Shown piece by piece: positions 417-62,643 of a DNA stretch of 64,000 nt. The first letter of the stretch is position 1. Each line of letters begins with the position of its first letter. The translations under genes were made by a program, and so were the position numbers. Origin of the DNA: Octopus vulgaris (Eukaryota); NCBI GenBank assembly GCA_951406725.2, contig OX597814.1, positions 158,968,001 to 159,032,000 on the forward strand, in the 5' to 3' direction. The notes under the pieces were generated by a model. That model was not told where the DNA came from. It ran no database searches and worked only from the letters and a program-made list of their open reading frames with translations.

Positions 417-3354
417 CAACTGTAGATTCAACTTCAGACGGTTTTTCTGAACGAAAGTTAATACGAAGTACAATAAGCAGGTTGTTCGATTATCTCATGC
501 ACAAAACACTTTTGTTCAAATACTTAGTTATGTAGTTATACGCTTATAAATAGTATATCATTATAAATTTCTTACAATGGTAATGCATCTTCTAATTACT
601 TTTAATTAGCACATGTTTTACTTTTAATATAGATTGTCTTAAAAATCATTAACTAATTTGAGAATCATTCGAAATAATTATCATTCTCTAAATATGCTAT
701 AAATTTACAAGAAAACTATCAAAATTATTCTTTAGCATCTACGTTGAAATATTCTTTCCATAAAATGTATTTACATTAGTGAGTTCCATATTTTTATAGC
801 TAATGTGCTTACCTATGCGAGATTCGGTTTCTCTAACAAATTCTGCAAAATCAAAATCGTTATTCATTAATGATTACTTTCATCATTTCGTGAAAGAAAA
901 AAAGCTTAAATAGTTTGAATTCAATTAAATTCATCAGAGAATCTAGATTGGCGTATTTGTCAGTATACTTTCATATCAATTTCTTAAGTATAACTTAATT
1001 TGAAAAATGTCCTAAAGTTCAATATTTAGTATAAGAAGGAATACTATAAATCGTATATATCAATTCATACTAAGGCAAATTACACTTCTAGTACGCATAT
1101 CGATAAAAATAATAATCATTAAGAAATGTTTTACTGACTATAATAATTCTAATAATATAGGTGCTCAATTTTCATTGAATCAATTAAGAAAACACTTACG
1201 AACTGTGGCATCGACCTCAGAAGGTTGTTCTGAATATGGAATAAAAGGTGACATCAGATTTTGCACCGTGCACAAATAAAATATAGACGGACAGATGCAT
1301 GAATGCATAAAAAAACTTCTCTACACTTTTAAAATTTAACGGTATGTTGTTCGAAACTATACAATACACTTACGTAAAAGGTATATTCGCAATTTTGAAT
1401 ATGTATTGAAGTTTTATGACATATGTTAGATGCGTTTGAAAAGTAGACCAATAATTGGAGAGCACTTACAAAAATTTATTTCATGCTTGAAACAATCGTG
1501 AATATTTTTTAAGGATTTTTAATAATAATGACAAATCGATAATTTACAGGTATATGGAGATTTACATATTTAAAAATTACTTAAAATTTAGAAGTTTGAA
1601 AACAATTCTAGACGAAATCTATAGTATTGTGACTCAAGCGTATTATAGTAATAACGAAAATAGAAGATCGCTCACCTTTAGGACGTTCGTCCTGTGTCAC
1701 AATATCTGTGAAATTAATTGAATGAAATTGTAATTGATTCTCAAGCATTTGCGGACAAAAAACTAAAAATGATAGTTCTTTTAATATCATACGATGTATT
1801 ATGGAAAATGATTATATTGAGAAACAGTAAAGTATGTTTCAAATATTAGCAGTGGCAAATTTTGTAAACAAACTTTATGATGAATAAAAGTCTGCATATG
1901 ATACATTTTATCATTTTATGTATTATTTGACTAGGACATTCAATGTATAATACTGAAACGCGATAAAGCAATAGCATTTTCACAAAAAGCATTTGCATAT
2001 CATCGAGATTGTATTACTGATTATATCATTACGTACCAAGTACAATATGTCGTTTCAGCAGAATCTTTCTCTCTTTCTTTCTCCCCCTCTCTCTCTTTCT
2101 ATACCTCTCTTTCTTTCATCGTTTGTCTATGATTTGGAAGTGGCTTTTGCAATGTATAGCCAATATTTAGGTACAATACCAGTAATTTCTGGTGAGAGTT
2201 AATGGATACCATCAGCCCCAGAAAAGTATCAGTTCATTACATGAAGGGAAACAATACAAAGATGTATACACACACACACACACACATGTATATACATATA
2301 TATGAAATAATTTTAGTACCTAATTCAACTGAATCTTAATTGCCTTATATAATATATATATATCATATATCATATATACGAGAGCAGAATACAACAGGAA
2401 ACTTACATCATAAATTACATAATCTTTACAAGTTTCACTTGCGAATACTAGAATGTTGTGCGAAAATTGTTACCTAAACGATTGCATCCACCCATCTACA
2501 CCCCTTGTATATATATAGATACACAAACACACACACACACACACACACACACACACACACACATATATATATATATATATATATATATATATATATATAT
2601 ATATATATATGTATGTATGTATGTATGATGTATGTACGTATAATATACAGAGATAGATAGAGAGATAGAGAGACAGACAGACAGACAGACAGGCAGGCAG
2701 ATACTATGAAGTTCTATAATGTTTCTGTCTCCCAAATTTCATTCAAAGTATTCACCTATTTTTATTACTAAGTTATTAAATGACTATGACTATTCCCAGT
2801 CAGAACTACTTCGTCCATCGAAAAGAGGCCATATCGTTCAAATATCTATCCAAACAAATTTGAGGCACTTTCATTCTTTTCAAATACGATAGAATACCAG
2901 AGACTATATAAAGACAGATGAAGACATCAAAATGAAACTTAGCGACAAGCGGAAGCAAGAAATCATAAAAGAATAAACTATCACTCACCAACAGTAGATT
3001 CCACCTCAGAACGTGTTTCTAATAAAAGGTAAAAGTAAAGATATACCCCCATCAATTATATGATGCAAACAATGAAACATTGTGCGTTTTCAAATCATGA
3101 ATTTCCGATATAAATTTCGACTATCCCCAAGCTGTTACACTTTATTGAGCATAATATATATTGAACTTTACTAAAATCGTAAATATGTTAAAAAAGGAAG
3201 TGTAAACAAAGTAGATTTTTAAAATGTAGTTACATTTCAGTAAACGATTTTAACTTAAAAATTAGAGACTTTAATATCTTCATGTTGATATACCGCTTGA
3301 AGAATAATTATTTTAGTAGCTTACCTGTACGAGTAACTTTTTCCGTTACGATCT
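417..3354 (-). CDS. Unit 1, six microexons: [60 protein letters not shown]
   Basis: Exons F 3325-3354, E 2989-3018, D 1676-1705, C 1200-1229, B 813-842, A 417-446; all AG/GT. Exon C ends in C rather than G, so the next junction codon is CAA (Q). Confidence 0.9.

Positions 3355-62643: not shown

Follow-up and report, generated by a model that had tools for sequence, protein, structure and literature searches.

In the chordate-type layout of obscurin, as outlined in PMC12812942, a tandem series of immunoglobulin (Ig) domains precedes an SH3-RhoGEF-PH unit, which is followed by Ig and FnIII domains and two kinases. The octopus gene described here shares this layout and, judged from its sequence, is a member of the obscurin family, but it differs in having a spacer of up to ~2,600 aa, encoded by ~268 micro-exons, inside the N-terminal Ig region. 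A disordered entropic spring has been described for UNC-89 (bioRxiv 10.1101/2020.04.03.023374); that spring, however, comprises ~650 aa and lies between the kinases, whereas the octopus spacer is found in the N-terminal Ig region. Differential splicing of PEVK and Ig exons determines the elasticity of titin and includes very long skips such as that of exons 47-167 in N2-B (PMC7370890), and the PPAK motif has been reported to be enriched in symmetric disordered exons (PMC3632108). The octopus array resembles the PEVK region in its acidic low-complexity repeats, its many symmetric exons and its position between Ig blocks, but its host gene has the obscurin layout. Titin PEVK units are about 28 aa long and proline-rich, with P, E, V and K making up about 70%, whereas the octopus units are of 10 aa, with 47% P+E+V+K and ~5% proline; membership of titin PEVK was rejected on account of the wrong gene, this PEVK share and the little proline.

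Very short exons, mostly multiples of 3, with longer introns and alternatively spliced central exons are also characteristic of the schistosome MEGs (bioRxiv 10.1101/2023.06.21.545858), and the octopus exons of 24, 27 and 30 nt, with introns of 260-4,729 nt, are similar in this respect. MEGs are, however, small secreted proteins of 10-20 exons, whereas the octopus micro-exons form a module in a giant Ig/RhoGEF/kinase gene; membership was rejected because the O. vulgaris gene models are 5,978-7,002 aa long and contain Ig, RhoGEF and FnIII domains. More generally, internal tandem duplication of symmetric exons has been reported as a frequent way in which disordered regions are assembled, alternative splicing of such regions being frequent too (PMC3632108), and within this class the octopus array stands out by its scale, the micro-exons extending over 233 kb. 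Less expected are the location and the scale together, i.e. an obscurin with a spacer of several hundred micro-exons that is still expanding and is common to Octopus and Argonauta. A literature search, covering main texts and largely papers outside subscription, found no paper on the array.

The window, by which we mean the whole analysed stretch of 64,000 nt of Octopus vulgaris DNA, carries 94 exons of 30 nt on its minus strand between positions 417 and 62643, all of them beginning and ending in phase 1. The minus-strand profile of exon classes B, D and F (classes as in Table 1) gave 47 exons, and the donor scan added three more classes to reach the sum of 94; profile rows scoring <40 (97 of 191, the best at 22 and many of them microsatellite) were discarded. 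On the plus strand of the window the B/D/F profile was empty, the best score being -17 compared to 54-69 for the minus-strand matches, and a plus-strand gene was rejected. Exons of 60 nt were likewise rejected, as none were found. The introns of the window measure 288-2,565 nt (median 373). An AG acceptor is present at all 94 exons and a GT donor at 93, the exception being exon 62614-62643, which has GG. The earlier note, which put the upper length of the repeat region at 940 aa or more, had included this exon with its broken donor; only 93 exons (930 aa) have canonical sites.

The same note had proposed that all exons start with AA, AT or AG and, except for one, end in G, so that any subset could be joined in frame with a nearly constant Glu or Asp at the junction. 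On all of these points it proved correct for the window. The first bases are AA in 76 exons, AT in 16 and AG in two, and the last base is G in 93 and C in one (1200-1229). None of the 4,371 possible forward joins within the window creates a stop; 3,625 give E, 744 give D and two give Q. The net charge of the individual exons ranges from -3 to +1.

The window contains only the 3' third of the array, with 172 array exons located upstream of it and two downstream. In total the array extends from 231059 to -2131 and consists of 268 exons (259 of 30 nt, five of 27 nt and four of 24 nt) encoding 2,667 aa. Donors are canonical in 265 of the 268; the faulty ones are GG at 62614 and also at the next class A copy beyond the window edge (66538), while 99684 has no donor. 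Exon 62614-62643 is probably either unspliced or an assembly error that was copied twice. Window positions 60400-60900 are 100% identical over 501 nt to G000:C1:159032324-159032824 in the adjoining unit (the window itself being G000:C1:158968001-159032000), and this identity and the common GG donor indicate that one of the two adjoining units may be an assembly duplicate.

Across the array the junction pattern is less uniform than in the window. Among the 259 exons of 30 nt, A or C is the last base in seven, and two start with GC or CA. The residue is K, S, A or Q at eight of 258 neighbour junctions, and E or D results from 32,145 of 33,411 forward joins. Phase 1-1 was found for all 167 resolved array exons of model P0139. 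A DNA search of the genome gave 55 matches, all within the array locus. With regard to composition, the repeat contains 24% Glu, carries a net charge of ~-0.16 per residue and is rich in beta-branched residues, and two exon types strictly alternate. Its hydropathy of 0.405 lies below the disorder boundary of 0.472 (charge-hydropathy relation), and the spacer is acidic, rich in E/V/T/S and probably disordered. Pfam showed no family covering the repeat in Argonauta proteins, and the ESM Atlas gave no usable match to the Argonauta repeat. Two Argonauta models contain the same repeat; among short transcript-derived proteins, with 8,000 candidates scored, it was seen in two Argonauta models only, and the word-limited searches detected it solely in Octopus and Argonauta proteins.

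By its domain layout, the host of the array is the octopus obscurin gene. The array sits between two tandem blocks of I-set Ig domains (Table 1); Pfam I-set was found on both exons flanking it, and 44 Ig matches were mapped. Further downstream, Pfam SH3_2, RhoGEF and SOS1_NGEF_PH scored above cut-off on genomic exons, and the SH3 domain is 61% identical to that of a shark obscurin. No kinase domains were seen down to -250 kb, but tblastn with vertebrate obscurin tails located them further downstream, at -288k to -334k, in the order kinase-Ig-FnIII-kinase and on the strand of the array. By this genomic layout the kinases would belong to the array-bearing gene, and they may share a transcript with the array. 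The models start at an Ig domain, and the O. vulgaris models with checked ends stop in the FnIII array, apparently before the C-terminus of obscurin is reached; past these ends (-259k to -334k) there are FnIII, Ig and two kinase domains. Among the 117 non-octopus matches listed, most are named obscurin and the rest are unnamed or have generic names. The NCBI orthologue from O. bimaculoides is XP_052826240.1 ('obscurin, partial'), and the O. vulgaris entries CAI9716209-215, named 'titin-like', represent the same gene. The gene is thus already annotated, with the array only partly covered by current gene models. Its span is ~670 kb (about 333,000 to -334,000), with a rough tally of ~370 exons, compared to 363 in human titin. 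In the exon mapping, four of 242 internal segments were not resolved and were omitted from the counts, and the Ig exon start at 253123 (TC) is probably mis-split.

The 94 window exons represent six types in strict ABCDEF order, forming 15 full units and one CDEF unit, with 52 distinct sequences. The units have been copied together with their introns at ~70-99% identity, and as a result of this tandem copying of six types the window exons amount to at most six independent observations. The upstream units of the array often lack single members. The repeat peptide has a pN/pS of 0.26 and is under purifying selection; a non-coding satellite was rejected on the basis of this value and of the RNA joints described below. 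The intron that separates exon 35713 from exon 34123 contains fragmented ORFs at window positions 34331-35121 (+), which may represent a remnant of a mariner-type transposase.

Table 1. Positions of the array features and of the surrounding domains. Positions <1 or >64000 continue the numbering of the window into the flanking DNA.
Feature	Position	Strand	Basis or remark
Class A, example	58690..58719	-	15 copies in window
Class B, example	58326..58355	-	15 copies in window
Class C, example	57748..57777	-	16 copies, the 16 AT-starting exons
Class D, example	57323..57352	-	16 copies in window
Class E, example	56938..56967	-	16 copies in window
Class F, example	56620..56649	-	16 copies in window
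Eight window exons 417, 813, 1200, 1676, 2989, 3325, 5123, 5526	417..5555	-	RNA contigs, in genomic order; 2989, 3325 and 5526 by class only
Class D exon ending in C	1200..1229	-	RNA joint to 813-842 (runs X1, X3), junction residue Q
CDEF-only unit, A and B absent	13320..15087	-	Class order
Youngest tandem block (unit size 2.5-3.9 kb; identity 94-98% with introns included)	39435..62643	-	Unit comparison
Class A exon, donor GG instead of GT	62614..62643	-	Donor check
Upstream Ig block	284737 to 236479	-	Exon mapping
Downstream Ig block	-8243 to -59984	-	Exon mapping
SH3, RhoGEF, PH and FnIII exons	-64315 to -124287	-	Pfam, exon mapping
Ig-kinase-Ig-FnIII-kinase series	-288 to -334 kb	-	tblastn

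The regular make-up of the units could also point to a function other than that of a spring, namely a multivalent binding strip in which each unit of 20 or 60 aa docks on a filament protein and block splicing alters valence or register. The strict alternation of two exon types, the six-exon order that has been kept, the low proline content, the many beta-branched residues and the purifying selection on the peptide are all in line with such a role. On the other hand, the Argonauta proteins carry the repeat in a region to which Pfam assigns no family, no partner is known, and the upstream units that lack single members show that the register is not strict. We regard a binding strip as the least probable of the explanations considered here.

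The earlier note read the uniform junctions as a dedicated code, an idea that found no support when the junctions were compared with the rest of the gene. The exons of the Ig blocks are very much alike in this respect, as 31 of 32 start with AA or AT, 30 of 32 end in G and all are phase 1-1; of the other mapped exons of the gene (n=39), 28 end in G. G is the usual last base of an exon before a donor. Among the distinct B, D and F sequences, the deviation from consensus was 0.06/0.01 for the junction Glu and 0.05/0.01 for internal Glu, which means that the junction Glu is no better conserved than Glu within the exons. Moreover, upstream array exons that end in A produce K and S junctions, and O. 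bimaculoides has K/S at three of the same places. Given the six templates, the match to the Ig exons, the ordinary conservation of the junction Glu and these K/S exceptions, the pattern needs no special selection. Symmetric exons predominate in this class of proteins, accounting for 311 of 363 exons in TTN and 84 of 116 in OBSCN, according to PMC9222585. Since a splice-set spring made from symmetric exons is known in titin, the junction pattern does not constitute a new code.

How the array is spliced was judged from two sources, gene models and RNA contigs. The models were taken as they stand, their own supporting evidence being outside our view. Seven O. vulgaris models match 165-170 of the listed exons and one 24-nt exon with 0 mismatches, and they do so in runs; the last 29 array exons are consecutive in all seven, and 35 of the 94 window exons are covered. 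Single exons omitted by models are 202917, 144125 and the donor-less 99684, as well as 102254 in one of seven. The O. bimaculoides model P0014 has 91-92 array exons (913 aa) in long runs, entering the array at the F exon 205635 and leaving it at the equivalent of 80758. The Argonauta model P0015 enters at the same exon type, whereas the first array block is present in P0001, a second O. bimaculoides model, as well as in those of O. vulgaris. It should be underlined that the large jumps in the models keep the six-exon register in near-identical repeats and may be due to mapping collapse, and that the 3' block missing from P0014 may be absent from the O. bimaculoides assembly. The O. vulgaris models have from 0 to ~10 downstream Ig domains, showing that block variation extends past the array. 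In P0143 and P0019 the last micro-exon (-2131) is joined straight to -64315, with the whole downstream Ig block omitted.

For the RNA, contigs of four of 22 runs (from three studies) were aligned to one 10-kb stretch that includes the final five micro-exons of the array together with the Ig exon that comes first after them; the runs were presumed to be RNA, and splicing is shown by their GT-AG joints. We read 17 distinct junctions by eye against the array exon list, with 11 loose ends and 143 pieces outside view. Contig depth, which differs between runs and is not usable to rank exons, served only to group rows. Fifteen of the 17 readable junctions fit the genomic neighbour (in seven of these one partner is known by class only) and two are skips. 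GT-AG joints connect the Ig exon to -2131 (X1 and X5), -2131 to -1813, -1813 to 417, 417 to 813 and 813 to 1200, and the sequence read between joints corresponds to exons 5123 and 1676 in genomic order. It also matches the neighbour pairs 175687-175297 and 165710-165317, and loose ends correspond to 178029, 94015 and an exon of class C, each located beside the expected class. Taken together, these data support that the exons are real, frame-symmetric and spliced.

The two skips differ in size. In run X12 the Ig exon is preceded by 28 letters identical to exon 84745 of class F, the next best match being 417 with two changes. This junction most probably skips 127 exons, among them all those of the window, although the loose end could represent an allele of exon 417, i.e. 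a skip of two exons only. In run X3 the partner of exon 80758 is a later A exon, similar in type to 73682; at least 79145 is skipped, and the skip probably covers seven exons. An apparent skip from 6817 to 9413 was rejected because of a paralogous F exon inside it. The skips may reflect alleles rather than splicing. Nevertheless, the same Ig exon is joined to -2131 in X1 and X5 and to the match of 84745 in X12, which indicates that the length of the region varies. In models P0014 and P0015, as well as in run X12, the array is entered or left at alternative points that are F-class exons.

The claim of the earlier note that splicing sets the length of the repeat is thus upheld in part: the Ig exon has two partners in RNA, and the variation is mainly block-wise. 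Its proposal of free 10-aa steps starting from 0 is not supported, as most junctions fit neighbours and the models run in long blocks; a form of zero length was not seen in the RNA contigs or the gene models. A mechanism in which every micro-exon is skipped independently, with the E/D junction as a selected code producing a continuum of length and charge in 10-aa steps, appears very improbable. All forward joins being in frame and stop-free, the E/D residue at 4,369 of 4,371 window joins, the two RNA skips, the few single-exon omissions in models and the spread of exon charge would be expected from it. It conflicts, however, with the 15 of 17 junctions that fit neighbours and with the unbroken last 29 exons in all seven O. 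vulgaris models, and no RNA joint skips a single one of the five micro-exons examined. Also against it are the same junction in the Ig exons, the strict ABCDEF order and the upstream K/S junctions kept at three places in O. bimaculoides. Since rare variants are lost from contigs, skipping of single exons at a low level is possible.

At the other extreme, the array could be essentially constitutive, in which case exon symmetry would matter in evolution only, through unequal crossing-over, and the skips would be noise, copy-number alleles or artefacts of assembly or mapping. The RNA junctions, which mostly join neighbours, agree with this, and so do the signs of rapid turnover, i.e. young near-identical units, dead copies (62614, 66538 and 99684) and degenerate Ig and linker exons. 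Yet one Ig exon has two different partners depending on the run, and the F-class entry recurs in models of both O. bimaculoides and Argonauta, while the first block is kept in the second O. bimaculoides model and in those of O. vulgaris. We therefore consider a constitutive array unlikely.

The explanation we prefer, with a probability of roughly 0.7, is that of an acidic micro-exon spacer in obscurin that has been duplicated and is block-spliced into a few length classes, setting reach or compliance. A six-exon unit with its introns was tandem-duplicated repeatedly to give the array. Every copy inherits the same junction because the founders and the flanking Ig exons are phase 1-1 with a Glu/Asp split codon, the G of which is the usual base before a donor. 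Owing to exon symmetry, the array can grow or shrink, and copies can be lost, with no frameshift. As the data show in part, splicing proceeds mostly in genomic order, with block skips entering or leaving the array at F-class exons, and this would lead to a few spacer classes of about 1,130-2,640 aa if all exons from entry to exit are kept. From one muscle to another, spacer length may in turn determine how far obscurin reaches or how compliant it is, much like the PEVK exons in titin. By analogy with titin and the interkinase spring of UNC-89, the spacer probably sets reach or compliance, and a role as spring or ruler is plausible for a module in a giant muscle protein. A more far-reaching version would be an octopod, titin-like adjustable spring in obscurin of ~270 micro-exons, in which muscles select from numerous entry and exit exons, and to some extent skip more finely, to obtain ~900-2,600 aa and thereby tune passive mechanics or filament spacing; we consider this possible but doubtful. 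If array length differs between muscles, the block-spliced spacer would offer a testable handle on the passive properties of cephalopod muscle. The array is, in addition, a natural test case for ordered splicing of several hundred 30-nt exons.

Some minor features of the downstream region are also worth recording. A second family of 30-nt phase-1 micro-exons, from -12911 to -49218, forms linkers between the downstream Ig exons; of its 18 profile matches ~10 appear intact, the others carrying stops or broken splice sites. Degenerate or split copies of Ig exons are found among intact ones at -17306, -24600, -25853, -27079, -30713 and -50022, indicating that modules arise and decay in the Ig block as well. 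A 100-N assembly gap at -21074 to -20975 lies inside an Ig exon. Finally, a single exon of 982 nt after the PH domain (-92440 to -91459) encodes a true PEVK-like repeat of 14 aa, and may be a second candidate spring of the opposite exon design.
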